Positions 1 to 16,410 of a stretch of 64,000 bases of DNA are shown here, one piece after another. Position 1 is the stretch's first letter. Each line of letters opens with the position of its first letter. Position numbers and translations under genes: made by a program. The notes beneath the pieces are model-generated. The model ran no database searches, had not been told where the DNA came from, and saw only the letters and a list, made by a program, of their open reading frames with translations. Origin of the DNA: a virus; the IMG/VR virus record IMGVR_UViG_3300027736_000020, positions 1 to 64,000 of that record. One strand, 5' to 3'.

Positions 1-19
1 ACCTCCACACCCCAACAAG

Positions 20-349
20 GCACATGCGGGAGCATGTGCATCCCCGCGAAGCGGTGATCCAGCAAGACGATGAAAACGCATCATGTTGACACGTGTCCGC
101 GATGCCCCCCAAGGTGGTAACGGGGATTAAGAGACTTGGGTGGTTGCGCTGGTGTGGGGGAAGTGCGTGCTCGCTCCGTGATTGTGACGTAGCAATGATC
201 GCTCAGGAACGAGATGGCGATATGGCTTCATCGCAGTGATCTTGAAGAACGCACAGAGGGGGTCAGGGGGCGAAGCCCCGTTGCAGGTGGTTTGGAGGAC
301 GGAGTCCTCCAATAAGATGGGGCTACGAGCGCAGCGAGTAGCATCCATC
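20..349. other. Cluster of stem-loops in non-coding DNA, several with C-GNA-G triloops
   Basis: GCACATGC-GGGA-GCATGTGC (20-39); CCGC-GAA-GCGG (44-54); GGGGC-GAA-GCCCC (267-279); TTGGAGGAC-GGA-GTCCTCCAA (292-312); GCTAC-GAGC-GCA-GCGA-GTAGC inside GATGG/CCATC (316-349). Confidence 0.75.
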
Positions 350-461
350 AGCAGTAGAGAGGCAGCAACAAGGAGTGAAGGTAGCAAGGAGGGAAAGTGA
401 AGTGACGCCTTGTGTTGAAGAGTGAGTGATCATCCCCATGGTGGAGAGGGGATAAGTCCTT

Positions 462-610
462 CTTGGTGAACGACAGGCAAGCGGCCTTGGTGAACGGCAG
501 GAAAGTCGGCCTTGGTGAACGACAGGAAAGTCGGCCTTGGTGAACGGCAGGAAAGTCGGCCTTGGTGAACGGCAGGCAAGTCGGACTTGGTGAACGGCAG
601 GCAAGTCGGC
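462..610 (+). repeat. Six head-to-tail ~25-bp direct repeats (iteron-like)
   Basis: Units start at 462 (24 bp), 486, 511, 536, 561, 586. Consensus CTTGGTGAACG(G/A)CAGG(A/C)AAGTCGGC. No spacers, and the period is not a multiple of 3. Confidence 0.95.
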
Positions 611-810
611 AGGCCCAGAGGGGGTCAACAAGCAAGCCCGGGGGGTCTCAGAGCAACGCTTGAGCGTCGTGGTGGTGTGAGGCAAGCCCGCCAAGCGGGA
701 CACCCTAAGGACTACCGTCTAGGGGCCAGCGGCCAGCTGGCCCAGTATATAGGATAAGCCCCCATCACATATCCTTTTCCCCGACACCTCATCTCCCCAC
801 ACATTCCTTC

Positions 811-910
811 CCGTTTTCCGGAAAAAATTTGCAAAAAAAATTTTCAAAAAAAATTCCCGGATAGTAACCCCTGAAGGATACCTGACGGGGAATACGGTAC
901 TATCCGGGAA
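811..910. other. A-tract/AT-rich element followed by a 13-bp perfect inverted repeat
   Basis: A6 (822-827), A8 (833-840), A8 (846-853); TTCCCGGATAGTA (854-866) and TACTATCCGGGAA (898-910). Confidence 0.85.
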
Positions 911-1037
911 GAGGGTAAAGGGGAGAAGCGTCCAGTTCCCGTTACGGAGTATACATGATACCGGGATACCCGTCACATACCGGATGGGCGCACGAAAAAA
1001 TAAAAAATAAAAGGCGACAGTGCAGGATCAACACTCC

Positions 1038-1046
1038 TGTTATACT
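1038..1046 (+). promoter_or_regulatory. Putative extended -10 promoter TGnTATACT upstream of dnaE
   Basis: TGTTATACT about 20 nt before the ATG. The same TATACT word recurs before four other plus-strand genes. Confidence 0.55.
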
Positions 1047-1066
1047 GGGGGAAAAGGGAAGCACCG

Positions 1067-4000
1067 ATGAGTGGACAGGTTGTTCAGCTGCACAATCACA
1101 GTGAGTACTCGATCCTTGATGGGAGGTCACGGATCGGGGAGTTGGTGGGGCGGGTTGTGGAGTTGGGGCAGCCAGCGGTGGCGTTGACGGATCATGGGGG
1201 GATGTACGGAACGATAGAGTTCTACCGGAGTGCGCGTGAGGCGGGGGTAAAGCCGATCCTTGGGGTGGAGGCGTATGTGGCGGCTGGGCCGTTGGATCGG
1301 AAGGATCCGGTGCTGGACAGGCACCAGACGCATCTGACCTTGTTGGCGATGAATGTCGAAGGGTATCAGAATCTTCTCAAGTTGACTTCGCTTGCGCACA
1401 TGAAGGGAATGTATTACAAGCCACGGATTGATCTTGAGGCGCTTGGGCGTCACAGTGATGGGCTGGTGATATTGTCGGGATGCATGGGTGGTGGGGTGGC
1501 GCAATCGTTCCTGCATGGGGATGGGAGTGAGGGCCGTCGATTGGTGGATCGATATCTGTCGATGGTGGGTGCTGATCGGTTCTTCATTGAGGTGCATGAT
1601 CATGGGTTGGATGAGCAGAAGAGACTGAACCCCTTGTTGTTTGCCTTGGCGAAGGAGAAGGGGCTGGGGGTAGTGGCGGCTTGTGACAGTCATTATGTGT
1701 TGCGTGAGGATGCAAAGTCGCATGATGTGTTGTTGGCGATTCAGACTGGATCGACATTGGATGATCCGTCGAGATTCCGTATCCGTCCCTATGGGGAATA
1801 TTATGTCAAGTCCTATGAGGAGATGCGGAAGGCATTCCCTGAGCATGCGTTACGCAACACGGTGCGGATAGCGGAGATGTGCAACGTGGAGCTGGATTTC
1901 TCGAAGGTGATGTTGCCGGAGTTCGAGATTGCGGCTGGACATACGGTGATGAGCAAGCTTCGTGAGGAGGTGCTTGCGGGATTGTCCAAGCGTGGGATCA
2001 TGACGGATGCATGGATGGAGAGAATAGAGTATGAATTGGGAATCATTGGCAAGGCAGGATACGGACGGTATTTCCTGATCGTACAGGATTACGTGCAATA
2101 TGCAAGAAGTCAGGGAATCATGGCAGTTCCTAGGGGTTCGGTTGCAGGATCGCTTTGCATGTATGCATTGGGTATCTGTGACATAGATCCAGTGAAATAC
2201 GATATCATGTTCGAGAGGTTCCTGCATGAGGAACGGAAGGGCATGCCTGATGTTGACATGGATTTTGCTGATGATCGGCGCGATGCTGTTATTTCGTATG
2301 TTACGCAGCGGTACGGAGCAGACCGGGTTGCCCACATCGGCACCTTTCAGACGTTGGGGGCCAGAGCCGCAATCAAGGACGTGGCGAGAGTACTGGGAAT
2401 TGATTACGGGGAAACGAACCGTCTGACGCGAGGGTTTCCGTCCAAGGGTGACGTGACGTTGGCGTCGTTGCGGGAGCTTGATGCGGTACGGGATGCGATA
2501 GTGGCGAACCCGGTGATGGGTGAGGCGTGGGAGATTGCGACGGAGCTTGAGGGGTTGGTGCGGGGGTTCGGGACGCATGCGGCGGGGATCCTGATTGCGG
2601 CGACGGCGCTTGATGAGGTGGTGCCGATCCAGATGCCGCCGGGAAAGCACACCTCGTTGTTGACTGCGGTGACGCAGTATGACAACAACAACCGGACTGC
2701 GGTGATCGAGTCGATTGGCTTGTCGAAGTTCGACTTCCTTGGCTTGGCGAATCTGACGAGCATACGCAGTGCGTGTGCGTTGATCAAGCACCGGCATGGA
2801 ATAGATCTGTACGGGCAGAGCGGAGAGAAGCTCTACAGCGAGTTGCCGGTGGAGTATGCAAATCCGTTGGCAGCAAGGACGTACGACATGCTGGCGGCAG
2901 GGGAGACGACTGCGGTGTTCCAGATGGAATCACCGGGCATGCGCAAGGCATTGCGGTTGGTGAAGCCGACACGGCTTGAGGATTTGCCTGCGGTGGTGGC
3001 ATTGTACCGTCCGGGTCCGATGGAGAACATTCCCGTGTTTGCGGCGGCCAAGGCTGATCCGGGTCTGGTGAGGAAGTATCATCCGGATATTGACCGTTTC
3101 CTTGCCGAGACCTATGGGGTGGTGACGTATCAGGATCAGGTGTTGCTTCTGGCGAGGACGATTGCGGGATTCACATGGGGGGAAGTCGATGTCTTGCGAA
3201 AAGGAATGGGGAAGAAGCTGGCGTCGGTCATCAATGAGCAGAAGAAGAAATTCCTTGAGGGAAGTGTGGCCCGTGGGTACGAGGAGGATCTTGCTGAAAC
3301 GCTTTGGGAAACGGTGGCTCCTTTTGCCGGATACGGATTCAACAAGGCGCATGCGTATTGCTATGGCTATGTGGCCTACATCACGGCGTTCCTGAAGGCC
3401 AATTTTGCGGTGGAGTACATGACGGCAGTGCTGACGCTTGAAGCCGGGAACAGGGAGAAGACGGCAGAGGCGGTGATGGAATGCAAGCGTTTGGGCATCA
3501 TGGTCCTGCCTCCGCGGATCAACGAATCGCTCAAGTCCTATGCGATCCTTGGGGATGACCAGATTCTCTACGGATTGTCTGCCTTGCAGAACATGGGTGA
3601 TGCGCATCTGGATAAATTGCTTGGGAAGAGGGACGAGAATGGCGGGTTTGCCTCGGCGGAGGAGTCCCTTGCAGGGATGAATATCCGTGCGGCGACGGCC
3701 TTGGTGAAATCCGGGGCACTGGACTTGTGGGGTGATCGCAATGCCTTGCTTGATGCGATGACGACGCAATCGGTGAAGCGGAAGCCGGGTCAGATGTCCA
3801 TGTTCGGGGCGGAGGATTTCCGGAATTACGTGCCGATGTCCGATCAGGATTTGATGGCCTATGAGAAGGAGGCGTTCGGATTCTATCTGACCAAGAATCC
3901 GTTGGCGAATGAGGTGTTCGATCAGCGGTGTACTGCTACCAGCCTTTCGATTGGCGACATGGCGGATGAGCAGGTGGTAATTGGCGGCATGGTGACCAAG

Positions 4001-4213
4001 GTGAAGACGCACGTACAGAAGAACGGGAAGCCCATGGCCTTCGTGGACATGGAGGACATGTTCGGCAAACTTTCCTGTGTGTTCTTCGGATCGATCTATG
4101 CGCGATATGCATCGTTCCTGAAACCGGACTCGATGGTGCTGATTGAAGGAACCGTGCGCATGCGCGAGGAAGAGCCAAGCATCATTGCAACAACGCTCAT
4201 GATGGTTGGATAA
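1067..4213 (+). CDS. dnaE: DNA polymerase III alpha subunit (DnaE family, phage-encoded)
   Basis: PHP motifs HNHSEYSILDG, TDHG, GVEAY, SGC, DSHY; RGSVAGSL; catalytic MPDVDMDF; GFNKAHAYCY; clamp-binding QMSMF; C-terminal OB fold (GKPMAFVDMEDMFG). Confidence 0.97.
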   Translation: MSGQVVQLHNHSEYSILDGRSRIGELVGRVVELGQPAVALTDHGGMYGTIEFYRSAREAGVKPILGVEAYVAAGPLDRKDPVLDRHQTHLTLLAMNVEGYQNLLKLTSLAHMKGMYYKPRIDLEALGRHSDGLVILSGCMGGGVAQSFLHGDGSEGRRLVDRYLSMVGADRFFIEVHDHGLDEQKRLNPLLFALAKEKGLGVVAACDSHYVLREDAKSHDVLLAIQTGSTLDDPSRFRIRPYGEYYVKSYEEMRKAFPEHALRNTVRIAEMCNVELDFSKVMLPEFEIAAGHTVMSKLREEVLAGLSKRGIMTDAWMERIEYELGIIGKAGYGRYFLIVQDYVQYARSQGIMAVPRGSVAGSLCMYALGICDIDPVKYDIMFERFLHEERKGMPDVDMDFADDRRDAVISYVTQRYGADRVAHIGTFQTLGARAAIKDVARVLGIDYGETNRLTRGFPSKGDVTLASLRELDAVRDAIVANPVMGEAWEIATELEGLVRGFGTHAAGILIAATALDEVVPIQMPPGKHTSLLTAVTQYDNNNRTAVIESIGLSKFDFLGLANLTSIRSACALIKHRHGIDLYGQSGEKLYSELPVEYANPLAARTYDMLAAGETTAVFQMESPGMRKALRLVKPTRLEDLPAVVALYRPGPMENIPVFAAAKADPGLVRKYHPDIDRFLAETYGVVTYQDQVLLLARTIAGFTWGEVDVLRKGMGKKLASVINEQKKKFLEGSVARGYEEDLAETLWETVAPFAGYGFNKAHAYCYGYVAYITAFLKANFAVEYMTAVLTLEAGNREKTAEAVMECKRLGIMVLPPRINESLKSYAILGDDQILYGLSALQNMGDAHLDKLLGKRDENGGFASAEESLAGMNIRAATALVKSGALDLWGDRNALLDAMTTQSVKRKPGQMSMFGAEDFRNYVPMSDQDLMAYEKEAFGFYLTKNPLANEVFDQRCTATSLSIGDMADEQVVIGGMVTKVKTHVQKNGKPMAFVDMEDMFGKLSCVFFGSIYARYASFLKPDSMVLIEGTVRMREEEPSIIATTLMMVG

Positions 4214-4219
4214 GTGAAA

Positions 4220-4228
4220 TGGTATACT
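4220..4228 (+). promoter_or_regulatory. Putative extended -10 promoter TGGTATACT
   Basis: Lies in the intergenic gap after the dnaE stop, followed by AAAGG RBS and ATG 4242. Confidence 0.5.
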
Positions 4229-4241
4229 TGAAAGGTAGTGC

Positions 4242-4487
4242 ATGATGATTCCGATTGACAGGATTGACAGCCCACGTGATGATGCTTGGTTACGCAGGTT
4301 GCGTGAACCAAACGAATGGTGGGATGCGCAGTATGGAAGGCGACAGCGAAGGAAGCAGCGTCGCATCAAGGAAGAGCGAGTAGTTTCGCGGATCGTTGAT
4401 GTGGACACTTCAAACCTCGAAGGACCTTGCATTCCTCCGATACTCATCATTGCTGCCATTGGAGTGCTCGCATGGATACTTATCTGA
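4242..4487 (+). CDS. Small hypothetical protein with C-terminal hydrophobic segment
   Basis: RBS AAAGGT upstream; fills the gap between dnaE and thyA; ends ILIIAAIGVLAWILI. Confidence 0.55.
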   Translation: MMIPIDRIDSPRDDAWLRRLREPNEWWDAQYGRRQRRKQRRIKEERVVSRIVDVDTSNLEGPCIPPILIIAAIGVLAWILI

Positions 4488-5278
4488 AATTGGCAACATC
4501 GGTGTTGGAGTTCGGTGAACTCCGTGGTGACCGGACAGGTACAGGCACGTACTCGCTGTTTTCTCCGGGTGAGCTTCGGTATTCGCTTCGCAATGGGTTT
4601 CCGATTGTCACGACCAAGCGGATTGCATGGAGGTTCGTGGTTACGGAGCTTCTGTGGTTCCTGCGTGGGGATACCAATGTCACGTGGCTTCAGAACCAAG
4701 GAGTGGATATCTGGGATGAATGGGCGGATGATGAGGGAAATCTCGGGCCGGTCTATGGCAAGCAGTGGCGTTCATGGGAGAATTACGAGGGCGGCACGGT
4801 TGATCAGATCAGCCGGGTGATCCGCAGCATCCGGGAGAACCCGGAGAGCCGAAGGCACATCGTCAGCGCATGGAATGTGGGGCAGTTGCATGAGATGGCC
4901 CTTCCTCCCTGCCATCTGCTTTTCCAGTTTCATGTGTCGGAGAAAAGCGTGCTGCATGTGAAGGTGACCCAGCGGAGTGCGGATGTCTTCCTTGGTCTTC
5001 CGTTCAATATCTCTTCCTATGCCTTGCTGCTTTCCATTGTGGCACGGTTATGCGATCTGATGCCCGGTGACGTGATCATGTCCCTTGGTGATGCGCATGT
5101 CTATCTCACTCATGTCCCGCAAATGCGGGAGCAGATCGGGCGGGCAAGCAGGGTATTGCCCGAGTTGGTGTTGCCAACGTTCCACTCGCTTGATGAGCTT
5201 GTGGACATTGATCCCAAGGAATTCCAGTTGAAAGGATATGAGCCATGGCCGAGTCTCAAGGCAAAAATCGCCGTGTAG
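4472..5278 (+). CDS. thyA: Thymidylate synthase ThyA
   Basis: DRTGTGT, ELLWFLRG, WDEWADDEGNLGPVYGKQWR, MALPPCH, QRSADVFLGLPFN. Start reassigned to ATG 4472 (GGAG RBS at 4461). Confidence 0.97.
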   Translation: MDTYLKLATSVLEFGELRGDRTGTGTYSLFSPGELRYSLRNGFPIVTTKRIAWRFVVTELLWFLRGDTNVTWLQNQGVDIWDEWADDEGNLGPVYGKQWRSWENYEGGTVDQISRVIRSIRENPESRRHIVSAWNVGQLHEMALPPCHLLFQFHVSEKSVLHVKVTQRSADVFLGLPFNISSYALLLSIVARLCDLMPGDVIMSLGDAHVYLTHVPQMREQIGRASRVLPELVLPTFHSLDELVDIDPKEFQLKGYEPWPSLKAKIAV

Positions 5279-6615
5279 CATGGTTCGAGAACTCCGTGCA
5301 TCCTTTGTTACGGAAAAGTGAAGATGAACCTTCGGATCCAGAGATCGGACGTTTCGTGGATCCTCCAAAACGCTTTGTCCCAGATCCGATTACGTATACT
5401 GGGTCAGATGAGGATTATCATGGGCCCGGAAGTAATTGGTTTTCTCAAACGTACGGAAATCCCAGACTTCTCGGTCACGAGGGAGCCAATGTACAGATGT
5501 ATGATGAGCCAAACACACTCGGAGGTGCATCGGTGGTCAAATGGGGAGGCCCACACTGGCCTTTTCGTCATACTACACCAACGGATGGGGTGAAAACGTA
5601 TGAGAATGGCAGGCAAGTCGGAGTGGTGAGCGTCAGTGACCGCAGCAGTGGTCCTTTCAGACAGGCGCAAGTTATTGATCCTCCGGGCGACTTGAAGCGC
5701 GAAGCATCGATTACGGCAGGCCTTGGTGCTCTCGGCCTTGCGCCACAGGTGCTTGGATATTATCCAGATGCTGCTAAGGCCCCATCGAGGTTTGCATTCG
5801 AACGCACAGACGACTACGGCGAGCGAATGTATGGCGATTACCTTGGTAATCAAGCACTCCACACCACACACGCGGGAAATGATGGATTCCGATCCGTTGC
5901 AAAATGGCACAATTGGGATCATTCGGATCCCGAGCAGCATGTGAATGATCTGATTTCCTTGTGGCAATCGGGACTCACGTCGATGCAAAGAATGCATCAG
6001 GCAGGATATGGACATGGAAATCTTTTGGAATTCAAGGATGACCATATCTGGCATAATCCCGAATCGAATGAAGTGCGATTTACCGACTTCGGAGGTAACG
6101 ATAGTTTTGGTCCAAATGATCCCTTTCATCAGAACAGCAGTTGGGGTAAACCCGAAATTGTGGAAAATGGCAAGAAAATGGTACGCCTTCGTGACATGAG
6201 TGGACTGACGAATACCATATTTGGACTGATGACGTTTGGTCGTCAACCCGAAAGAATGAAGCAGTTTGAAGATCAGGCTCGTCGCGAACAGGGAATCAGT
6301 GCCAGCAATATTGTCACGCAATCGGCAAAGAAACAGGCAAGGCAGGAGTTTCTTGAAAACCCTGAAGAGTTTTACGAAACCATGTTGAAGCCGCAAGGAT
6401 ATGGGACAAAAGATCCTGAAAAATTCAAAAAATTCATGGAGGCTCTTCGGTCCTCCATGCTTGATCCAACGGTACTGCAAAGTCCCTTTTCATTAGGAAA
6501 TATTGATTATGACACGTATGTTAAACATGTGCGGAATAGTGTGTCTGAGTTATCACAAGCAAGAAAAAGCATGAAAAAGAGCTGGTTCAGTCTTTCTGTA
6601 CTTGGAAAGAGATAA
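5245..6615 (+). CDS. Protein-kinase-like fold protein with HGN catalytic loop (probable pseudokinase), possibly virion-associated
   Basis: REASITAGLGALGLAPQV (alphaC-like), MHQAGYGHGNL, VRFTDFG; terminal WFENSV and KKSWFSLSV motifs. Confidence 0.6.
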   Translation: MAESQGKNRRVAWFENSVHPLLRKSEDEPSDPEIGRFVDPPKRFVPDPITYTGSDEDYHGPGSNWFSQTYGNPRLLGHEGANVQMYDEPNTLGGASVVKWGGPHWPFRHTTPTDGVKTYENGRQVGVVSVSDRSSGPFRQAQVIDPPGDLKREASITAGLGALGLAPQVLGYYPDAAKAPSRFAFERTDDYGERMYGDYLGNQALHTTHAGNDGFRSVAKWHNWDHSDPEQHVNDLISLWQSGLTSMQRMHQAGYGHGNLLEFKDDHIWHNPESNEVRFTDFGGNDSFGPNDPFHQNSSWGKPEIVENGKKMVRLRDMSGLTNTIFGLMTFGRQPERMKQFEDQARREQGISASNIVTQSAKKQARQEFLENPEEFYETMLKPQGYGTKDPEKFKKFMEALRSSMLDPTVLQSPFSLGNIDYDTYVKHVRNSVSELSQARKSMKKSWFSLSVLGKR

Positions 6616-6992
6616 TGAAAAAACTACTGATGTTCTTTGCCATGATTACGCTGACATTGGTGGTGGTCACCGCAACGGTCAGGATTTTGTCTCACATTGA
6701 TGTGCAGGCACGCGCAACAGAGGATGTGCAATCCGAGTTGGTCCGAATCAAGGAACAGCAACAGTTCCTGTTCGCCTCGTTTTGCAATGAAACCAACATG
6801 CGGGCAAGGAAACCACAGGAACTCAGTTATGCCGAGTGCATGGATTATGCACGCAATACCTACGTGGAAATGAAAAAGGTTCCGACACCGACGGTATTGG
6901 AATACGCGACAACCCGCAGGGGACTTGGCAAACCGGAACCTACTCCTTGCAGTGGTGAATTGCCATGCGGAACCAAGAAACTTGCTTCATGA
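6615..6992 (+). CDS. Hypothetical protein with N-terminal signal/transmembrane helix
   Basis: MKKLLMFFAMITLTLVVVTATV; start overlaps the upstream stop (TAATG). Confidence 0.75.
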   Translation: MKKLLMFFAMITLTLVVVTATVRILSHIDVQARATEDVQSELVRIKEQQQFLFASFCNETNMRARKPQELSYAECMDYARNTYVEMKKVPTPTVLEYATTRRGLGKPEPTPCSGELPCGTKKLAS

Positions 6993-7096
6993 TGAAGCCT
7001 GTTCATTTCCTTGTCATTGGCTGCATGTATCTTTTGGCATCATTGCTCATGCATGCATTGTTTTCATCAATAGCCTTTTCCATTTGATAATCATAT

Positions 7097-7104
7097 TGTA
7101 TACT
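7097..7104 (+). promoter_or_regulatory. Putative -10 element TATACT
   Basis: TGTATACT in the 148-nt intergenic region before the 1529-aa gene; AAAGGA RBS follows. Confidence 0.4.
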
Positions 7105-7140
7105 TGTTCTTGAGGATACATTTCCAAAAGGACAACAACT

Positions 7141-10100
7141 ATGCCATGGTTTGATAAAAGCATACATCCTGATTTTCGCAAAAGCGAAGACCGTGCCAAT
7201 CAGAAGGAAGATCGTGGCCCCGCAACTCCGGGTGACAGGATCAAGCAGGCACTGACCACTCCGCAATCCGCTGAGGATGCCGCTGCCATGAGGGAACGCA
7301 TTCAGTCTGGAATGGCTGGTGCAGGATCGGTGCTTGGCGGAGGGTTGCAGGTAGCAAGAACCGCGGCAACCATTGGCGGACATGTCACCGCAGGCGTTGG
7401 AGCTGCGGCAAAACAGGCAGTGAGGGAAGTCACCTCCCTTCCCGTTGTGCAGCAAACCGCTGCAACTCTTGGCCAAGAAGCGGGTAGACGCATCGTTGAC
7501 GCGGCAGGACGTGTTGGAGCCAAGCGTGTGACCAGAGGTGGATTGCTCGGCATCACTGCCGGACGACAATTTGCTGAATCATTCCCAAAGGGCTCCTCGA
7601 TTGATGGAGCAGAACCGTCTGCGGCTTCAGCACCAGAAGTTGCGTCATCAGCACCAGAAGTTGCGTCATCAGCACCAGAAGTTGCGTCATCCCGTGAACC
7701 GGGTGTTCTTGACGTGTTGCTTGCCCGGGTGCAAAACGCAACAGCCAAGCCCTTTGCCAGACGACAAAGTGGCTCCCTTGCGCGGCAAGCCGTGACGGGT
7801 GATGCTGCTCCGGATGCTGCTCCGGATGCTGCTTCGGAAGGTGATTCGTATGGTACGCGAGTAGCAAGTGTGTACAACAATGCCGTTGGGGCATTGACGG
7901 ACTATCTGCTGAATCAGTTCAGGCGCTCGAAAAGACAAGCCGCAACAGATGTGGGAACAGTGAGAGCACTTGGCCCCATGAATGTCGGCAGGGCAGTCAA
8001 GGATGCGGTAACGGGTCATGTCAAGGAAGCCGTTGGAGAGCTGGGAGAAAACGTTGCGCTTTCTGCCCTTGAAACCGTCGTGGGTCCTGAAGAACAGGTA
8101 CTTGAGGAGGATCTTGCAGGATTCCATGCACAATATCCTCAGTTCCTCAATCAGCATGAACATCTTGAAGTGCTTCGTCATTCTCCGGAAGAAGCTTGGG
8201 AAAAGGGTGTCAGCCAGTATGTCCGCAATCCCCATACCGGAAGAATGGGAAAGATATACAGGATTTCTGATCATCCCGATCAGGAAGATGTCGGAGGAAT
8301 TCTTGAAGGAACCTTTGTTCCGCATGCTAATTTCGAGAATGACACAGATTCATCGCACTATCATGCTTTTTTGGGTGAATCCGTTCGCACCGGGCTTGCC
8401 GATGACGATGAACCTCCATCGTACGATCCCGGACCTGCGGAAAAAAAGAGTATTCAGGCAAGATATGCACTTGAATGGCTTGATGGACATCCTTCCAATG
8501 ACTGGGTACATCCAGACATCATCAAAGGCGCACGAACAGGAATATCTCCTTTTGGCGCAATTCCCCGTGCGCAATGGGATACGTCAACACGTGGTCCGCT
8601 TGGAGGATCGGGAACAAGCGGATTTGAACATAATGTTGGTGAAGCCCTTGACGCTAGTTATTCAGGAGCTTATGGCAGCGATCCTTATAATGAAGGACCG
8701 TCAATGGAGTTTTCCGGGTTTGATGCTCCCGAACATCATGGTCTGAGTGAAAAAACTATTGCGAGGGCTGCAGGTCCTCATGGATGGACACTTCCGGGTG
8801 TTGGTCATGGACCACACGATATTGAAGGATACTTGCATACTGCCGCGCATTCTCCGGAAGAACGTGAACGATATCTTGCCGAAGTGATTGAAGCACGCAA
8901 ACGCGGATTTCTTACTCCTGTCCCCACTGCCAAAGGAACCGGAGGTTGGACCGGATATAATCATCAGGATAGACAACCCTTGTATACCCGATCCCATGTC
9001 AAATTGACACGTGGACAAAGACAATTGCTTGCAGAGCAAAAATTGGTTAATCTTGCAGAATCCTTAAAACCTGCAAGGTTTGATCGCGTTGATGAACCGG
9101 GGCGTATGGACGACCTACGGGCATTGCGCAAGTGGCAGAGGCTTCAACGGAATATCGATCCAGTATCTGGTCTTCCCTTGGGTGATTCAGAAGGCGCGTA
9201 TCCAAATTGGGAACCTGATTATCTTGAAGATGGCAATAATGAAGATGATTTCAAGCCGGGAGCGCGTGGTGAAAATTCAATCCTTAGTCACGGAATCTGG
9301 CGAGGATATCCTGATTATGATGGATCTGAAGGTGGACCATATGGGGCACATGATTTATTGACGCGGAACATGCCTAGAGTCATTGCTACGCTTGCCGATG
9401 ACTATGCTGCTCCAGATGGCATGGATCCCGGACAATGGAACACATTGCTTCAAACAGAATATCGATCAAGAGGCGGCGGCCGGGCACATGCAACAGAATA
9501 TCTTGATTTGGGATTTCTCGTAAAGAAAGAGGATAGAGCCAGAGCCAAAACAGCTATTCAATCAATGGAGACAAGAGTACGAGACCTTATCCCTGATCCT
9601 CCCAATGGAGCAAAAAAGGAAAGATCAGGATACGAAACAAACATGGATGCGCGTTCGGTTGTCGATGCAATCAAACGTGCTCATGAAAGTCCAGTTCCAT
9701 TGCCTTCCGGAACACCATTTGATTCCTCTGCGACTCCAAGTGATTCCGAAATAGCGAGACATCGAAAAACTTCTTTTGGCTTAAGAAGGCAAAGCGAAGG
9801 AATTACCGATGCATCTTCACAATTGGCCGATCCGGATCACTATTGGAAAAGAGGACGGTTTCGTCAAACGGATCCGAACGCCTCTTTTGGTTTTTCTGAT
9901 CCTTATAGTGATCATGATGATTCCATTCCTTATGACCGGCAAGTTCCTTATCCTGATTCCGAAGATTCGTATGGTGCATGGAACGAATCAGGCGAATATG
10001 GGCCAAAAAATGATGGTACATACAATCATCTTGGCGATGAATCATTTAAGCAACGCGAGCAAGAAGGAGTACGAATTCAACATGGGCTTTTGCATATACG

Positions 10101-11730
10101 GGGTTTCAATCACGAGCCAACGGATGGCCCTTATTCCGATACGGCAGTATTGATGCGGGCAATGGAAACAGCGCATTTTTCTCGAACCGCTGGTGAATCG
10201 ACAATAGGAGAAGAATCGAGAAATCGTGCGTTTCTTGATGGATTGCGACAGGGCGCAAGCAATCATGAGAGGGATCGTCGTTATCGTGACGATCCGCTAT
10301 CTCAACGTCAATACGCTAATTATCCCAATCCCGGATTCAGCTCAATAGAGCAAATGCAAGAAAGCAATAAAAAATTTGGAGTTTCATTGGCCAGACATGC
10401 TCCGGAAATATTGAGGAATCGGGCACTAGTACTTCGTGCCCGGTTGGCGGAAATGAAAAAACTTGACGAAATGGGAATCGAAACAAGAAACATGTCAGGC
10501 AGGTATGAGAACATTACTCATGCGTTCAATCCTGAAGAATATGTAAGGACACAAAAAGATCTTGCGTCTGTGCAAAACTTGCTTCAACGGTTTCTCTCCC
10601 CTTCAGTGCGAATATTTGGACAACAAACAGCAGAAGGAACAGTGAAATCATTTTTTCATTTGACAAGAACATCCGCGTTGCGCAAATCCATGGAAAGCAA
10701 GATTCGTGATGAGGAAAACCAGCAAAGACGCAAGATTCACCGGGAAGAAATTGCCGAGGAAGAGCATGGCGTCGAGCATGAATATGATCATGGACAAGGA
10801 CGCCATGAACGCAAGATCATGCGTCTGGTAGAAGACAGCAATGTCTGCCCCAAATGCGGATGCAACCCTTGTCGATGCGAGGAGCGCGGAGAGGCGAAAG
10901 TTCTCCGCCGGATGGATCAGTACGAGAAAAAGACCCGAAAGGTCATCGACAAGGAAGAGGACGCACAGAAAAAGCGCATTCACCGAGACCACACTGGTCC
11001 CGGAGTTCCCAAGTTTGTCGCAAAATATGATCATGGAATCAATCAGCACAAAAGAAAACTGAAGAAGGAAATCACTGAATTGCGTAAAGAGGAAAAGGAC
11101 GAAGTGCAAAAGGACATGGACAAGTCATTGCGGAAATTGCAGAAAGCCGTCAACGCAGTGGACATGAGTCCCGATTTGCTTCCTGCCACTCCGGTGAAAC
11201 CTCCTGTCGTGCCAAAGCTTCCCAAGGCTCCTGCAGTTACTCCGGTGATGAAAAGCGTTGAAGCCATGGAAAAATCAAAAAAACACAAGAAAAAGAGTAA
11301 ATGGCCCAGTTTTGACGTGCAATCCAGTCAGATAGCCAGAAGGGAAGGAGTCAGCGAAAAGGCAGCCGACGCAATGCTTGCTTCCCGCGCCCGTAATCAC
11401 GGAACAAAGAAATCATTGACCGGCAATGTTGATGAAAGCGGATTTGTCATTCCCGGAACAGTTCAGCGCAGAAGTGGCGTAGGATTTGCAGATATGGACA
11501 AACGAGCCAGTGAAATCAAGGCTCGCGCGAATGAGGCGCGTGTCCGCGCTGCGGCTGATGCGGCGGCAGCAACTCCTGTCGTTCCAAGTGGCCCACGAAT
11601 CAGATACGGCGATCCGATTACTGAAACGATTGCCAAAGTACGAGGAAGACAGGCAGCGAGGCAAGCTGGCGGAACATTTGCAGACAGGGACATCAGGGTG
11701 TACCGTCCAGCAAAAAAGAAGGGCACGTAA
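7141..11730 (+). CDS. Very large (1529 aa) hypothetical protein, probable internal head/ejection protein
   Basis: Good RBS; N-terminus WFDKSIHPDFRKSE matches the 5245 protein; many KS/KA motifs in the C-terminal third; CPKCGCNPCRC segment; low-complexity repeats. Confidence 0.8.
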   Translation: MPWFDKSIHPDFRKSEDRANQKEDRGPATPGDRIKQALTTPQSAEDAAAMRERIQSGMAGAGSVLGGGLQVARTAATIGGHVTAGVGAAAKQAVREVTSLPVVQQTAATLGQEAGRRIVDAAGRVGAKRVTRGGLLGITAGRQFAESFPKGSSIDGAEPSAASAPEVASSAPEVASSAPEVASSREPGVLDVLLARVQNATAKPFARRQSGSLARQAVTGDAAPDAAPDAASEGDSYGTRVASVYNNAVGALTDYLLNQFRRSKRQAATDVGTVRALGPMNVGRAVKDAVTGHVKEAVGELGENVALSALETVVGPEEQVLEEDLAGFHAQYPQFLNQHEHLEVLRHSPEEAWEKGVSQYVRNPHTGRMGKIYRISDHPDQEDVGGILEGTFVPHANFENDTDSSHYHAFLGESVRTGLADDDEPPSYDPGPAEKKSIQARYALEWLDGHPSNDWVHPDIIKGARTGISPFGAIPRAQWDTSTRGPLGGSGTSGFEHNVGEALDASYSGAYGSDPYNEGPSMEFSGFDAPEHHGLSEKTIARAAGPHGWTLPGVGHGPHDIEGYLHTAAHSPEERERYLAEVIEARKRGFLTPVPTAKGTGGWTGYNHQDRQPLYTRSHVKLTRGQRQLLAEQKLVNLAESLKPARFDRVDEPGRMDDLRALRKWQRLQRNIDPVSGLPLGDSEGAYPNWEPDYLEDGNNEDDFKPGARGENSILSHGIWRGYPDYDGSEGGPYGAHDLLTRNMPRVIATLADDYAAPDGMDPGQWNTLLQTEYRSRGGGRAHATEYLDLGFLVKKEDRARAKTAIQSMETRVRDLIPDPPNGAKKERSGYETNMDARSVVDAIKRAHESPVPLPSGTPFDSSATPSDSEIARHRKTSFGLRRQSEGITDASSQLADPDHYWKRGRFRQTDPNASFGFSDPYSDHDDSIPYDRQVPYPDSEDSYGAWNESGEYGPKNDGTYNHLGDESFKQREQEGVRIQHGLLHIRGFNHEPTDGPYSDTAVLMRAMETAHFSRTAGESTIGEESRNRAFLDGLRQGASNHERDRRYRDDPLSQRQYANYPNPGFSSIEQMQESNKKFGVSLARHAPEILRNRALVLRARLAEMKKLDEMGIETRNMSGRYENITHAFNPEEYVRTQKDLASVQNLLQRFLSPSVRIFGQQTAEGTVKSFFHLTRTSALRKSMESKIRDEENQQRRKIHREEIAEEEHGVEHEYDHGQGRHERKIMRLVEDSNVCPKCGCNPCRCEERGEAKVLRRMDQYEKKTRKVIDKEEDAQKKRIHRDHTGPGVPKFVAKYDHGINQHKRKLKKEITELRKEEKDEVQKDMDKSLRKLQKAVNAVDMSPDLLPATPVKPPVVPKLPKAPAVTPVMKSVEAMEKSKKHKKKSKWPSFDVQSSQIARREGVSEKAADAMLASRARNHGTKKSLTGNVDESGFVIPGTVQRRSGVGFADMDKRASEIKARANEARVRAAADAAAATPVVPSGPRIRYGDPITETIAKVRGRQAARQAGGTFADRDIRVYRPAKKKGT
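7627..7689 (+). repeat. 3 x 21-bp in-frame tandem repeat (SAPEVAS)
   Basis: TCAGCACCAGAAGTTGCGTCA x3; a 12-bp GATGCTGCTCCG repeat (DAAP) follows at 7801-7833. Confidence 0.95.
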
Positions 11731-11734
11731 CAAG

Positions 11735-11747
11735 GGTATACTGGGGG
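11735..11747 (+). promoter_or_regulatory. Putative -10 element TATACT(GGGGG)
   Basis: TATACTGGGGG is identical to the 11-mer upstream of dnaE (1041-1051); AGGAG RBS follows. Confidence 0.5.
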
Positions 11748-11763
11748 CAGGAGAACTGTCCCC

Positions 11764-12177
11764 ATGAAATTTGACACCGCCGTTGTCGTAATGAAGAAGA
11801 CACCATTGCCGTTGATTTCAATCGAGCCTGTTGCAGTCCCGGTTGTGGAAGAAGTTCCCTACGTTCGCAAGTATTACGATTGCGTGATTCGTTCCCGGCG
11901 CGATGAGCATACACGGGAATGGTGGAAACTCATGGATGATCGGTACATGAAAGAGAAGGATTCGATTCCTTTTCAGATATGGCCAATGATCCGGGGTATC
12001 TCGAATGACTGGAGTGGCCCTTGGCCTTCAGCAGCCGTAGGGGTCACGTATGAGGAGTCTGACATGATCAAGGAATGGGCCAAGGAAACTCCATTGTGGA
12101 CGGTATCCACGCCGAGTCTTTCCTTCATTTACAAGCCACTTTTTGAAGGTGGACCAGTGAGATCTTCCTATAAATGA
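11764..12177 (+). CDS. Hypothetical protein
   Basis: 137-aa ORF with AGGAG RBS, fills the gap. Confidence 0.7.
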   Translation: MKFDTAVVVMKKTPLPLISIEPVAVPVVEEVPYVRKYYDCVIRSRRDEHTREWWKLMDDRYMKEKDSIPFQIWPMIRGISNDWSGPWPSAAVGVTYEESDMIKEWAKETPLWTVSTPSLSFIYKPLFEGGPVRSSYK

Positions 12178-12183
12178 TATACT
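12175..12183 (+). promoter_or_regulatory. Putative extended -10 promoter TGATATACT
   Basis: About 30 nt upstream of the thermonuclease ATG. Confidence 0.5.
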
Positions 12184-12213
12184 TTCATGTAATGAAAAGG
12201 AACGGGAAAAGTC

Positions 12214-12621
12214 ATGTATGAATACAAGGTAAACAAATTGCTTGGAGTCATTGATGGAGATACCATTGATGTGCAGATTGATCTTGGATTCGACGTGTCG
12301 TTTACCAGTCGTGTTCGACTGAGTGGCATTGATACGCCCGAAAGTCGCACCACGGACCTCAAGGAAAAGAAATATGGTCTTGAGGCAAAGGAATGGCTCA
12401 AGCATCGTCTTGAGTCTGCCAAGAAGATTGTCATTCGCACCGAAAAACCTGACTCCAGCGAAAAATACGGAAGGATTCTCGGCACGTTGTCGATTGATGA
12501 TGAGCCGCTTTCCTTGAATGAGCAGCTCGTAAAGGCCGGATATGCGTGGGCATATGATGGTGGCACCAAGCACAAGAGCTTTGAAGATCTTGATGAGAAA
12601 AGAAAGGCGGCAGGGAAATGA
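12214..12621 (+). CDS. Thermonuclease (SNase-like) family protein
   Basis: VIDGDTIDVQIDLGF, RVRLSGIDTPE, KYGRILG, LNEQLVKAGYAWAYDGG. Confidence 0.92.
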   Translation: MYEYKVNKLLGVIDGDTIDVQIDLGFDVSFTSRVRLSGIDTPESRTTDLKEKKYGLEAKEWLKHRLESAKKIVIRTEKPDSSEKYGRILGTLSIDDEPLSLNEQLVKAGYAWAYDGGTKHKSFEDLDEKRKAAGK

Positions 12622-12917
12622 GTTATTCGAATATCAGGAAGTCACTGGAAAGAAATCAGCAGTCCCTTGATACCATGGTTACAGGATTGTTGACGGAGCT
12701 GGTAAAGGGCAAGCGTCGAAAGACAGGAATGGGTCGTCCCAAGGGTGATGGTCATGAGGCAATGAAGGTCAATGGTCCGGTAACGCACGATATTGAGCCC
12801 CAGACTGATGAACTTCTTGACGGTCCTCAAGCCATGGGACTCAATGAATCTGTCACCAAGTCGTTTGGTCGCACGAAGCGTGCACCCAAGTGGTTTGAGG
12901 ACACTGTCCTGTATTAG
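12618..12917 (+). CDS. Small hypothetical protein, possibly head-associated
   Basis: ATGA overlap with the upstream gene; IRKS and VTKSF motifs; C-terminal WFEDTV. Confidence 0.7.
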   Translation: MSYSNIRKSLERNQQSLDTMVTGLLTELVKGKRRKTGMGRPKGDGHEAMKVNGPVTHDIEPQTDELLDGPQAMGLNESVTKSFGRTKRAPKWFEDTVLY

Positions 12918-12929
12918 AAAGGAAATCCG

Positions 12930-13439
12930 TTGATCGAGATGATCGTTGCTTGCGCTGCAGATAGTCAGCAGCGACTGGTTATTGGAAGGGACAACACGTT
13001 ACCGTGGAACATTCCTGAAGAACTCCGTCGTTTTCGCACTGTCACGTCAGGCCGTGCTGTTGTCATGGGAAGGAAAACCTATGAGAGTTTGCCGCGCAAG
13101 CCACTTCCTAACAGAACGAATATTATTCTCAGTTCCCGGCCAGAGTATCCTGCTCCTGACTGCCTTGTGTACAGCAGTATCGCTGACGTTGTGGCGAAAT
13201 ACGCACGTTCAGAGGAAACCTGTGTGGTCATGGGAGGTCAGGAAATCTACCGGATCTTCTGGCCATTCTGCAATACACTTCATATCTCAAGGATTGACAT
13301 GCTCGTTGATGACGGTGATGCGTTCTTTCCGTTCTCTTGGAATGATGTCGAATTGGAATTCTCTCCCGTTTCTTTCGTGGACCGGAGTTCTCAAGGAATA
13401 CAGTGGAAGGAATACACCTATGAGCGAAACCAGCACTGA
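12930..13439 (+). CDS. folA: Dihydrofolate reductase
   Basis: MIVACA, VIGRDNTLPWNIPEELRRFR, VVMGRKTYESLPRKPLPNRTNIILS, VMGGQEIY, GDAFFP; TTG start with AAAGGA RBS. Confidence 0.95.
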   Translation: MIEMIVACAADSQQRLVIGRDNTLPWNIPEELRRFRTVTSGRAVVMGRKTYESLPRKPLPNRTNIILSSRPEYPAPDCLVYSSIADVVAKYARSEETCVVMGGQEIYRIFWPFCNTLHISRIDMLVDDGDAFFPFSWNDVELEFSPVSFVDRSSQGIQWKEYTYERNQH

Positions 13440-13794
13440 AAAATTTCTCATCAGTCCAAAATACATCCTGCGAAAAATGTTGCAGGAAATCCTTGAGGAC
13501 CATTCCCATTTGATGAAATATCCAAAGGATTGCTCTTGTCTCAATCATGATGGTCCGCATGCCATCTGGCAATCCCAGGATCAGCTCATACGGAATTACC
13601 GTTCCATACTCAAGATCATCGACACAGTGGATATTCCACAGGAATTTTATGGAACAATTGCTGATATCATTGCATTTGGCGAGGCAGAAAGACAGCGTCA
13701 ATCAATCCTGATCAAGGATTTGAAATTGTATGCCAATGATTTCATGCCAAAAAAAAGGCAGGAAACCATGCGCCGACAAAAAGTTAGCGAATGA
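13420..13794 (+). CDS. Hypothetical protein
   Basis: Start reassigned to ATG 13420 (GGAAGG RBS). The upstream part of the listed 12946 ORF is an alternative frame over DHFR. Confidence 0.7.
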   Translation: MSETSTEKFLISPKYILRKMLQEILEDHSHLMKYPKDCSCLNHDGPHAIWQSQDQLIRNYRSILKIIDTVDIPQEFYGTIADIIAFGEAERQRQSILIKDLKLYANDFMPKKRQETMRRQKVSE

Positions 13795-13797
13795 TGA

Positions 13798-16410
13798 TTA
13801 TTCAAATCGCCGGATTGACACACTAAACCAACTTCTTCGGAAATTTTCGTTCCATCTATCTAGCTCCCTCTCCAGATTCACCTCTGGTTCATCAAACAGT
13901 CCTTCCCAAGCTTCATATTGACGGTCCCCAGCTGGTTGCGTTGTGTCTATATACGGAGCGGGAGGTTGGGAAGCAACAAACTTTTTCCATTTTTCTACCC
14001 AAGGTCGGAACAATCGATCCCTACGAAGCGGAGTCGTCAGATGCACCTCATCGTCATCTGGGATTGCGATATATGTCAAATTTGGCCCAGTAAATCCCGC
14101 ATTGTACAATGAGTGAAAAACTTGTTGCGTATGATGTGGCGTAACGACTGTTCCGGGTTTTATGTGGATCCATTCAATGTGGGGGTCAACTGGAGGAGGA
14201 ACCGGAGACCGTTGAGGATCAAACGCCATATCAGCTGGCTCAGCATACCACTCGCTCGAAGTTTTTTTCTTACGACTTGAAGCCTCAACAAGCAACTGTC
14301 TATTTTCCCCAAATACACCTCTATATCTGCCACCTAAACCTGCTCTTGAACTTGGACCGCTGACATGAATCATTTTTCCCGTAGGATAATTTTTTTCATC
14401 GTATTGATCAGCGTTGTTATTAAAACGATTACGTGCGTCCTCTCCTCGGCCTTTTTCAAGTCTTTCCATTCCAGCTTTGCTCATTTTCAATCTTGCACTG
14501 ATTGCCTTGGCTTTTCTTCTGGCGTCTGCCTTGCTTGAAGCACCCCACGCCTGAAGCGAAAGCAGCAATCGCGTTGGCTTGCCATGCTCGTCATACTCCG
14601 GCCCCGGAGAATTGCCCATACGCGCGAGGAATGACGCTCGACGTGGGTTATCCCCTGACTTGACCGGAGGCTTCAGGTTGTGGCCCTCAGCCTTCGCAGA
14701 GGCCCTTCCCTTGGCGTTGAGACCACCCTTGGGATTCTGACCTTCCTTCCGTTGCCACGCAGGCGTCTTGTTTGCCTTGGAAAGACGATTGTATATTTCG
14801 TGAAGGGGAATATCGTCATAGAAAGAATTCCTGAGTGGCGCTTCCGGCGGAGGAGCCGCTTGTCCCATGTCCTTCGTTGGGCCTTCTTCAGGCGACATGC
14901 CTCGCCTTTTAGTAATCGTGCTGATATTCGGAGTACGCAGAAAAGCGTCATGAGCAGATTGAATACCGGGATGACCTTCTCCCAATATTGCAGAACTCAA
15001 TGCCATCACGACCGGATTATTCGGCACTTTAGACTTGTACCATTCAAAAAAAGGATGTGTGACCGGCATGGATGGGTTGCGCTTATATGAAGGTTGTCTA
15101 AGATTTTCTATAATATCACGCTGCTCATCTGCAAATGAATCCATTTTTCCAGTTGCATCAAATTCTCTTCCCTGCTCACGCACCCATTGCCGAAAATGAC
15201 GACCAACGCTTAATGCATCTGTTTTTCCCATTGATGCCATCTGTGCAACATGATCGTTTGCACCACGCACAAACTGATCATCAGAAGCTAAGCGTTGATA
15301 CGTTTCGGGCAAATGCTCATTCAAAATGTGAAGCGCCGTAGCTGATGCGATAGCCTGATTATACACTGGACCCAAACTGTGCATGGCATCAGACATAAAG
15401 TTTCTTGTCATCGAACGGTAGCTATCCATTTTTTTGCTTCTGTTGTATTGTCCAACCATTTCCGGGATAAATGCATTGGCTGATTCAGCAGTCTCACCGG
15501 AATCTCCGGTCATTTCTTGCCTTTGCAATTTTTCCCTCATCTCCAAATCTTTCTCGGGAACAACTCTTTCATTCCAATCATCTATTTCTTTTGGACTTGG
15601 TAACAAGCTCATTATCGAAATTCCAAGATTTGCAGGTTTTTCGGCCATAACAAATCTCGGTAATCCGAAACGCGGGTTCCAGAAGTCACGACCATTCGAG
15701 TCGCTCGAACTGTTTACGTCGTTGACAGATGCCTTGGAAAGACGATTATACAAATCATGCAATGATATGCCGTTAAACGCGTCTTGATTTGCAAATGAAT
15801 TTTGAAGGGGTTCAGGATTTGTTACCTCATGTGGAACAGTAAATTGCTCCATTGATTTTGGCAAATCTTCTTCATTACCTTTATCCATTCTTGCATTTGC
15901 CTGATCCTGACTTCCTCCGTCTCTTTCTTGAACCGGCCAATCTTTTTTGCGATTCTTTTCACTAATTAAGGTAGTCGGATCGACACCGCGTTTGTCAGCC
16001 GTTTTGTCTTCGGGATCAAGTTTTTGTTTGGGAACTGGTAGCGTCCATCCTTCTATCCCTCTGGGTTGTCGATCTTTCAAATAGAGAGCATTGTGTTGAT
16101 CGAGCTGTTGCTGCATCAGCATCTGCGCTGTTTCGGCATCCCCTCCTGCAGCATCTAGAAAAATTCTTCTCGCTTCTTCGGTAAAATACCATTCTCCACC
16201 GGGAGCAATAAAATTTTCAGGTGTTGAGCCATTTGAAAAACCATTGTCTGCTGGGCCATACAGAGGTGCTTTTGCGAGTTTATTTTTCTTAAGAAGACTC
16301 AATTGCGATGGAAATGGATTTGATTTCATGATCATGCTCTTTTTTGATTTGGAAAGTTTTGCATATATCTTGCTTAATGACATATCAGCGTACAGGTATT
16401 CTTCCATCAT
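13798..16410 (-). CDS. 870-aa multi-module protein directly downstream of portal, probable head protein; contains a DUF6321-like module
   Basis: Three LxxLY(N/A)(R/K)LSK(A/S) motifs; module PAWQRKEGQNPKGGLNAKGR...RRASFLARMG...LLLSLQAWG (about 14487-14772); C-terminal RRSWFSVSI. Confidence 0.8.
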   Translation of the reverse strand: MMEEYLYADMSLSKIYAKLSKSKKSMIMKSNPFPSQLSLLKKNKLAKAPLYGPADNGFSNGSTPENFIAPGGEWYFTEEARRIFLDAAGGDAETAQMLMQQQLDQHNALYLKDRQPRGIEGWTLPVPKQKLDPEDKTADKRGVDPTTLISEKNRKKDWPVQERDGGSQDQANARMDKGNEEDLPKSMEQFTVPHEVTNPEPLQNSFANQDAFNGISLHDLYNRLSKASVNDVNSSSDSNGRDFWNPRFGLPRFVMAEKPANLGISIMSLLPSPKEIDDWNERVVPEKDLEMREKLQRQEMTGDSGETAESANAFIPEMVGQYNRSKKMDSYRSMTRNFMSDAMHSLGPVYNQAIASATALHILNEHLPETYQRLASDDQFVRGANDHVAQMASMGKTDALSVGRHFRQWVREQGREFDATGKMDSFADEQRDIIENLRQPSYKRNPSMPVTHPFFEWYKSKVPNNPVVMALSSAILGEGHPGIQSAHDAFLRTPNISTITKRRGMSPEEGPTKDMGQAAPPPEAPLRNSFYDDIPLHEIYNRLSKANKTPAWQRKEGQNPKGGLNAKGRASAKAEGHNLKPPVKSGDNPRRASFLARMGNSPGPEYDEHGKPTRLLLSLQAWGASSKADARRKAKAISARLKMSKAGMERLEKGRGEDARNRFNNNADQYDEKNYPTGKMIHVSGPSSRAGLGGRYRGVFGENRQLLVEASSRKKKTSSEWYAEPADMAFDPQRSPVPPPVDPHIEWIHIKPGTVVTPHHTQQVFHSLYNAGFTGPNLTYIAIPDDDEVHLTTPLRRDRLFRPWVEKWKKFVASQPPAPYIDTTQPAGDRQYEAWEGLFDEPEVNLERELDRWNENFRRSWFSVSIRRFE

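Follow-up and report, generated by a model that had tools for sequence, protein, structure and literature searches.

ORF5245 is an open reading frame (ORF) encoding a 456-residue protein near the start of a 184,088-bp contig of an uncultured freshwater phage (IMG/VR record IMGVR_UViG_3300027736_000020); the stretch of DNA analysed, referred to as the window, is the first 64 kb of this contig. Judged by its motifs and profile matches, ORF5245 represents a form of the kinase-like superfamily that is new and has diverged far; the catalytic Asp is absent, the corresponding position being occupied by Asn. The best explanation of the data as a whole, which we hold with moderate confidence, is that it represents a probably head-loaded, tagged, Asp-less kinase-like module, one of the cargo-type modules of a hypervariable locus downstream of the thymidylate synthase gene thyA in a small freshwater myovirus lineage. 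Kinases have been described from phages, and eukaryotic pseudokinases have been studied extensively; among the full-text literature matches listed for pseudokinase and bacteriophage, none describes a phage-encoded pseudokinase.

A preliminary description of this DNA, made without database searches, had noted a kinase-like order of three motifs in this reading frame. The frame and all three motifs were confirmed in the sequence, and the features of the kinase-like part are as follows.

5245..6615, plus strand: ORF5245, tagged kinase-like (HGN) protein of 456 residues.
5698..5751, plus strand: alphaC/beta4-like segment REASITAGLGALGLAPQV, residues 152–169.
5947..6099, plus strand: catalytic core (alphaE, catalytic loop, beta7-beta8 and DFG), residues 235–285, the best conserved part of the protein.
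6013..6021, plus strand: H257 G258 N259 (CAT GGA AAT), with Asn where the catalytic Asp of HRD sits.
6034..6045, plus strand: K264 D265 D266 H267, K264 being the HRDLK lysine and H267 occupying the position of the metal-binding Asn.
6085..6093, plus strand: D281 F282 G283 (GAC TTC GGA), the DFG motif, preceded by T280 (6082–6084).

The REASITAGLGALGLAPQV segment includes R152-E153-A-S-I..GLAPQV. The register of the catalytic loop was set by a hidden Markov model (HMM) alignment to p38gamma, which equates L260 with the Leu of HRDL and leaves a three-residue insert (L261, E262 and F263) before K264. Of the catalytic Asp, the metal-binding Asn and the DFG Asp, ORF5245 has the DFG Asp (D281) alone. 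The codon of N259, AAT at 6019–6021, is a single transition away from GAT, as the preliminary description had remarked in raising a sequencing error at base 6019. The HGN motif is real and not such an error, because three other distinct homologues (P0002, 87% identical; P0003, 83%; and the divergent, 290-residue P0004) and an independent freshwater contig carry it. The latter, from run X1 (2017), is 1225 nucleotides long, spans 5319–6546 and has seven listed differences, base 6019 not being among them. The gene was detected in runs of 14 freshwater or lake studies from 2017 to 2025; contigs from four of these runs were aligned to it, and the X1 contig is the only one of the four in which base 6019 was read outside the protein families.

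The search for relatives covered 5.8 billion clustered proteins as well as 1.84 billion cluster representatives and found only a handful. Three word-index searches yielded seven family members in all, and phmmer against the 1.84 billion representatives retrieved P0003 and two proteins that resemble ORF5245 in its terminal tag (described below) alone. Scans of viral and metagenome collections added further loci alike in the tag only. The family comprises an HGN clade (P0001–P0004) and an HGD clade, which consists of a 354-residue protein (L001:640–1704), P0005, P0006 and a module within L002 and which carries IHAAGYSHGDLRGKPDHLWVN..VKFIDFGQAR. The L001 protein is syntenic with ORF5245, its gene being located behind thyA on another viral contig. 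Asn is thus conserved within the clade of ORF5245, whereas its syntenic homologues have HGD. Within the HGN clade, 49–50 of the 51 residues of the core (residues 235–285) are identical, compared with 73–89% of the N-terminal part; between the clades, the kinase cores are about 32–41% identical (41% across residues 235–285). The catalytic loop of the HGN clade (LLEFKDDH) is one residue longer and more acidic than that of the HGD clade (LRGKPDH), and the metal-binding Asn is replaced by His in all members except P0004, which has Ser. In P0004, the DFG Asp, the catalytic-loop Lys and this His are gone as well (HGNV-GPESLW ... FTHLG). The tree of eight sequences did not fix the place of P0004 and, therefore, either one or two Asp-to-Asn events are possible.

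The profile comparisons show that the catalytic core of ORF5245 is homologous to kinases, with the HGD sister clade serving as the bridge. Alignment of the HGN clade with the HGD clade by hhalign gave a probability of 99.25% (E 5.5e-20) over residues 235–285, independently of the N-terminal tag that the clades have in common. The HGD-clade profile matched 452 PDB sequences at E ≤ 1; every one of the 60 matches listed is a Ser/Thr kinase, with p38gamma first (E 6.7e-5), and the alignment to p38gamma (33 residues, 17 identities) is co-linear over alphaE, HRD, beta7-8 and DFG. The whole-family profile reached a best E of 3.6e-4. The best PDB matches include MAPK, CDPK and MELK, and also ROCK and PknA; kinship with JAK JH2 or the kinase homology domain (KHD) of guanylyl cyclases, which the preliminary description had invoked, is not seen among the 60 PDB matches listed for either profile. 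The resemblance in motifs is therefore beyond chance, since the two clades align with high probability and the HGD profile retrieves kinases.

Other libraries point the same way. The Pfam Pkinase model matched four of the eight members, namely all four HGD members, with a best E of 9.6e-6 that lies under the gathering score (22.7 bits for the best relative against PF00069, where the curated cut-off is 31.7); the Kdo and RIO1 models gave weaker matches. Sub-threshold NCBIfam matches were to LanKC, MAD6, Bud32 and PknB, with the LanKC alignment of the L001 homologue running from the equivalent of the REASITAGLGALGLAPQV segment through DFG. The HGN member P0004 directly matched the MAD6 kinase model of NCBIfam (E 2.9e-5), and HGD-clade relatives matched PD-T4-6 (2.1e-7) and mad6 in PADLOC. 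The language-model neighbours of ORF5245 and of the L001 homologue are clusters of Pkinase, RIO1, Kdo and ABC1. The L001 homologue also gave tblastn matches to phage kinases (E 0.01–5), those at E 2–3 including the "serine-threonine kinase" of Escherichia phage Flotzy and the "protein kinase" of Planktothrix phage PaV-LD. Additionally, the alphaC/beta4-like, hinge-like and catalytic segments follow one another in an order and at distances that fit small kinases of the RIO/Bud32/Kdo type. Direct searches gave no kinase: the ORF5245 core (residues 28–352) had no match in PADLOC, ORF5245 had no tblastn match among phages and a single chance match by phmmer in the PDB (an acyl-CoA dehydrogenase), and the Pkinase HMM matched nothing on the phage genome.

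A pseudokinase is taken here as a kinase-homologous domain without at least one of the VAIK Lys, the HRD Asp and the DFG Asp. ORF5245 combines kinase homology with the absence of the HRD Asp, conserved among its orthologues, and as far as the sequence goes, calling it a pseudokinase is well founded. In the proposed scheme, the clade of ORF5245 would have lost the catalytic-base Asp (HGD to HGN) and kept K264, H267 (in place of the metal-binding Asn) and D281. With this Asp lost, ordinary phosphotransfer is most likely impossible, and the protein probably has no conventional kinase activity. The condition of P0004 is as expected when catalysis is no longer selected. The core is the most conserved segment in the clade, however, and the site should therefore still be used for something. 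ORF5245 probably works either by binding, as a scaffold, sensor or inhibitor, or by nucleotide-dependent chemistry that is very weak or atypical. With both HGD and HGN orthologues at one locus, the family would offer a natural experiment on what stays when catalysis goes.

Both ends of ORF5245 carry short motifs that recur on other proteins, as the preliminary description had stated, and these motifs adjoin one that is enriched in head proteins (see below). The features of the tags and of the locus are listed here.

5245..5319, plus strand: N-terminal tag MAESQGKNRRVAWFENSVHPLLRK|S, with a putative head-protease site LLRK|S at residues 21–25.
5281..5303, plus strand: 23-nucleotide word TGGTTCGAGAACTCCGTGCATCC encoding WFENSVHP.
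6565..6612, plus strand: degenerate C-terminal tag KSMKK|SWFSLSVLGKR.
4427..5278, plus strand: thyA (thymidylate synthase), which forms the conserved left edge of the variable locus of tagged modules.
6615..6992, plus strand: ORF6615, a small protein of 125 residues with a hydrophobic helix at its N-terminus, translationally coupled to ORF5245.
7141..11730, plus strand: ORF7141, a giant tagged protein of 1529 residues, with the tag MPWFDKSIHPDFRK followed by the putative cut point |SED.

The C-terminal tag is intact in P0002 (KSMKKSWFENSVHPALSKKIS). The N-terminal tag is common to ORF7141, homologues, and other modules in L001, L002, L003 and L005. Its consensus, MAESQGK(D/N)RRVAWFENSVHPxLRK or (KS)M(K/E)KSWFENSVHPALR(K/Q), stands before every module behind thyA in this phage group, and the swappable modules (kinase-like, HD and JAB-like) are bounded by the WFENSVHP peptide plus a site of the form hydrophobic-[R/K]-K|[S/A], the HD and JAB-like domains being weak matches. 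On these unrelated modules, the tag is found at N-termini, C-termini and internal joints. In L001, it closes ORF1 and, in tandem, opens ORF2 across an ATGA stop/start overlap. In L002, a single ORF of 1031 residues (L002:186–3281) contains a tag, module A, a second tag, an HGD kinase-like domain and a C-terminal domain of the ORF7141 type that corresponds to residues 1181–1336 of ORF7141 (E 2e-31). Modules bounded likewise by tags are present in L003 and L005, with single-ORF fusions in L003; the same modules are thus separate genes or one ORF, depending on the phage (L002:186–3281, L003:6001–9732 and L001:640–5048). An internal KSM(K/E)KSWFENSVHPALRK tag, with its in-frame ATG kept, marks each module joint. 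ORF7141 has a degenerate internal tag, GTVKSFFHLTRTSALRKS, at residues ~1160–1184, just before its conserved C-terminal domain (motifs HGVEHExDHG, CPKCGCNPCRC and HTGPGVPKF). The 764-residue P0008 bears a near-identical tag of 31 residues at both ends, and its second half contains a JAMM-like HSHTPSAFSSQPSGSD motif with a weak Prok-JAB match (E 0.007). As a separate observation, an acidic DEPSDPEIGGFVDPP segment is tandemly duplicated directly after the tag in P0002, the nearest homologue of ORF5245 (residues ~25–55).

All intact copies of the 23-nucleotide word, on four phage contigs, are spelled alike even at synonymous sites, and the viral collection scan found it on one other contig only. 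In diverged copies of the tag (in ORF7141 and at the C-terminal ends of ORF5245 and of an 870-residue post-portal protein), the amino-acid pattern is kept and the DNA differs. Metagenome contigs from runs X4 and X1 branch exactly at the two tags (window 5277–5299 and 6555–6587) and, therefore, the tags are recombination joints in nature. In the lake population of run X4, thyA is followed directly by a homologue of ORF6615 (MKKSLMFFAV), without a kinase-like gene between them. The kinase-like gene of that run starts with an internal-type tag, MKKTWFSHSV, and is therefore located elsewhere or behind another module. This tag architecture of N-termini, C-termini, joints and frozen DNA provides a sequence code, open to testing, for how cargo is loaded and modules are exchanged.

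The site at the end of the tag is a possible link between ORF5245 and the phage head. A candidate prohead-protease site, [LFIM][NRK]K[SA], is present 35 times in the phage proteome: six occurrences fall in the major capsid, scaffold-like and protease proteins (0.87 expected), and 13 lie within the first 35 residues of proteins (3.5 expected). Examples in the head trio are PLNK|SFDM at residues 17–20 of the major capsid protein and RLKK|S at residue 276 of the protease. A WFxx[STA][VIL] peptide forms the end of six proteins, and in four of them basic residues directly precede it (KK|S, RR|S, PK|W). Counted within the last 30 residues, five proteins besides ORF5245 end in WF/FFxx[STA][VIL], three of them directly after basic residues. 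With WF/FF peptides at protein ends, the same tag is apparently used at C-termini. The corresponding genes are as follows.

91521–93266, 93288–94886 and 94898–95944 of the genome, all minus strand: major capsid, scaffold-like and protease genes (L006).
12618–12917 of the window, plus strand: protein with a C-terminal WF/FF peptide.
13798–16410 of the window, minus strand: protein with a C-terminal WF/FF peptide.
161383–162321, 163777–165039 and 165043–166176 of the genome, all minus strand: proteins with C-terminal WF/FF peptides.

The protein at 13798–16410 is the 870-residue protein encoded downstream of the portal; it matches DUF6321 (E 1.3e-18), and its C-terminal end is RRSWFSVSIRRFE.

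The tag of ORF5245 ends in a site of the type found in the capsid, scaffold-like and prohead-protease proteins, which makes recruitment of ORF5245 into the procapsid probable. We infer every functional step for ORF5245 from these sequence patterns. At both ends, a WFxxS[VI] peptide would be split from the body of the protein at the hydrophobic-[R/K]-K|[S/A] site, the WF peptide acting as an address and K|S as a release site for the prohead protease. ORF5245 would thus be trimmed to about residues 25–445 in the procapsid and be delivered alongside the DNA. The giant protein of the ORF7141 type, to which the L002 fusion ties the kinase-like domain, would accompany it. Packaging is reasonable to suppose on this basis. 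If the protein is indeed packaged and injected, a non-catalytic kinase-fold effector would be at work in the first seconds of infection.

Several observations weigh against this reading. The whole ORF5245 protein matched nothing in Pfam, PHROGs or NCBIfam, and the HGN-only profile retrieved no kinase from the PDB. All kinase matches of the relatives are under the curated cut-offs and lie mainly in subdomains V–VII. The AlphaFold2 models, with predicted local distance difference test (pLDDT) scores of 32.3 (single sequence) and 30.6 (eight sequences), are unusable and did not confirm the fold. The kinase-like order of motifs in the preliminary description holds as homology at the alphaE/catalytic-loop/DFG core. 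Neither a Gly-rich loop (GxGxxG) nor a VAIK/beta3 Lys is recognisable N-terminal of the alphaC-like helix in any member, and the alphaC Glu is not conserved, with His at the place of E153 in HGD-clade members and Ser in P0004. Nucleotide binding is therefore uncertain, and the term "ATP-binding" used in the preliminary description found no support; any nucleotide binding, like the complete bilobal fold, is inferred. The conserved active-site region, with the extra acidic residues E262, D265 and D266, could mean residual catalysis. The gene overlaps thyA behind dnaE and may be expressed with the replication genes rather than late with the head genes. A tag word spelled alike in the DNA of different contigs suits a recombination joint no less than it suits a signal at the peptide level.

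These last two points, together with the branching of metagenome contigs at the tags and the population without the gene at the locus, are the grounds for regarding ORF5245 as a cytoplasmic accessory protein, expressed with thyA and dnaE and never packaged, with the WFENSVHP word serving mainly as a DNA recombination joint. The word is the same at synonymous sites on four contigs, even though the kinase cores have diverged so far, which accords well with such a joint. We consider this account possible but rather unlikely. A pure DNA joint does not account for the in-frame retention of the peptide at protein termini, for the amino-acid pattern that ORF7141 and the 870-residue protein keep although their DNA differs, or for the enrichment of the adjoining K|S motif in the proteins of the head trio (capsid, scaffold and protease). 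Moreover, the roles of recombination joint and capsid address are mutually compatible.

The activity of ORF5245 has a further alternative reading. The protein could be an active, atypical enzyme that binds nucleotide and carries out phosphotransfer or another transfer (e.g. AMPylation), with a relocated base such as D265, D266 or E262 in the enlarged catalytic loop. The near-invariance of the core within the clade, the retention of K264, H267 and D281, and the longer, more acidic loop are consistent with this proposal, and there are precedents. Some proteins first termed pseudokinases were later found to be active in atypical ways; JAK2 JH2 and HER3 (HGN/HRN) keep weak activity, and SelO and SidJ are kinase folds with other chemistry. 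On the other hand, Asp-to-Asn at the HRD position is the standard kinase-dead change, P0004 implies that catalysis is dispensable in the lineage, and the ATP-binding residues of the N-lobe are unrecognisable in every member. An active enzyme of this kind therefore seems unlikely.

The preliminary description had also suggested a decoy for host Ser/Thr-kinase defence signalling. This suggestion found no specific support, because any kinase-like sequence would resemble PD-T4-6 or MAD6 in a defence-only library, and the PADLOC similarity to these is generic. In its full form, a head-loaded, dead kinase-like protein would be clipped at K|S, injected, and block or titrate the trigger of a host Ser/Thr-kinase defence of the PD-T4-6 or MADS type; we regard this as improbable. 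If it were true, the modules (kinase-like, HD and JAB-like) would be an interchangeable set of counter-defence proteins for injection, traded between phages at the frozen 23-nucleotide word.

That ORF5245 is not kinase-related at all, its fold being a different one in which HG[DN]...DFG arose by chance or convergence, is highly improbable: the empty searches with ORF5245 and the HGN-only profile, the lack of an AlphaFold2 fold and the sub-threshold scores would agree with it, but the listed PDB matches are exclusively kinases and share the co-linear alignment (to p38gamma, 33 residues with 17 identities), four independent libraries and the language-model search agree on a kinase, and the order and spacing of the segments fit known small kinases.

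In its genomic setting, ORF5245 starts within the 3' end of thyA, with an overlap of 34 nucleotides, and its stop shares a TAATG overlap with the ATG of ORF6615. The gene dnaE lies upstream of thyA and ORF5245, all on one strand. A promoter and terminator scan of positions 1–14000 found no more than expected by chance and is uninformative on the timing of expression; the partial cover of the gene in metatranscriptome run X16 is not taken as evidence of transcription. Beyond the giant protein, the window encodes a 135-residue homologue of staphylococcal nuclease (SNase; 12214–12621, plus strand; Pfam E 2e-19), and a similar ORF likewise follows the giant protein in L001 (5017–5451). The contig carries genes for a portal, a large terminase, a major head protein, a head maturation protease and a tail sheath. 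The capsid protein shares 22–25% identity with its counterparts in SPO1-like Bacillus phages, Bacteroides DAC phages and Thermus phages. The lineage consists of uncultured yet widespread lake phages.

Compared with the kinases of the PKL clan (Pkinase PF00069, RIO1 PF01163, Kdo/WaaP PF06293 and Bud32), the phage family is alike in alphaE, the H-x-[D/N]-L..K loop, beta7-beta8 and DFG, in an alphaC/beta4 segment of the E...L..L...G..P type, and in the small size of the domain. It differs in a catalytic-loop insert of two to three residues, in His (Ser in P0004) for the metal-binding Asn, in the lack of a recognisable Gly-rich loop or VAIK Lys and, in the clade of ORF5245, in Asn for the catalytic Asp. 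HGN or HRN is also present in the pseudokinase domains of JAK JH2, the receptor guanylyl cyclase KHD and HER3, which are alike in having Asn at the catalytic base, a retained DFG and a substitution conserved among orthologues. No specific sequence kinship of ORF5245 with them was seen among the PDB matches listed, however, and it is a phage protein with another domain context. The Ser/Thr kinases of phages share the phage origin and match weakly by tblastn over the catalytic segment (E 2–3). T7 gp0.7 is an early cytoplasmic enzyme; kinases of its type and that of PaV-LD keep the full catalytic residues, whereas ORF5245 lacks the Asp and has terminal tags.

As regards the tagged modules, the polyvalent proteins of phages and conjugative elements, reportedly described by Iyer et al. 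in 2017, are similar in having unrelated enzymatic modules (kinase-like, HD and JAB-like) that are joined or split among relatives and are presumably delivered with DNA. In contrast, a single conserved tag punctuates the modules here, and the phage of the window has them as separate genes. Further counterparts are the P1 DarB and SPN3US ejection proteins (PMC9024508 and PMC10052503). In T4, internal proteins of the head core are injected with the DNA, and IPI–III and Alt carry a capsid-targeting sequence that is removed by the prohead protease gp21 (PMC9958956, citing Mullaney and Black 1996). The phage tag resembles this sequence in being a short, common terminal peptide on unrelated, non-essential proteins, and in ending at a type of site found in capsid, scaffold and protease proteins. 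It differs in its consensus, WFxxS[VI]HP..[R/K]K|[S/A], with a putative cleavage site, in its additional occurrence at C-termini and polyprotein joints, and in a DNA spelling that is frozen across phages.

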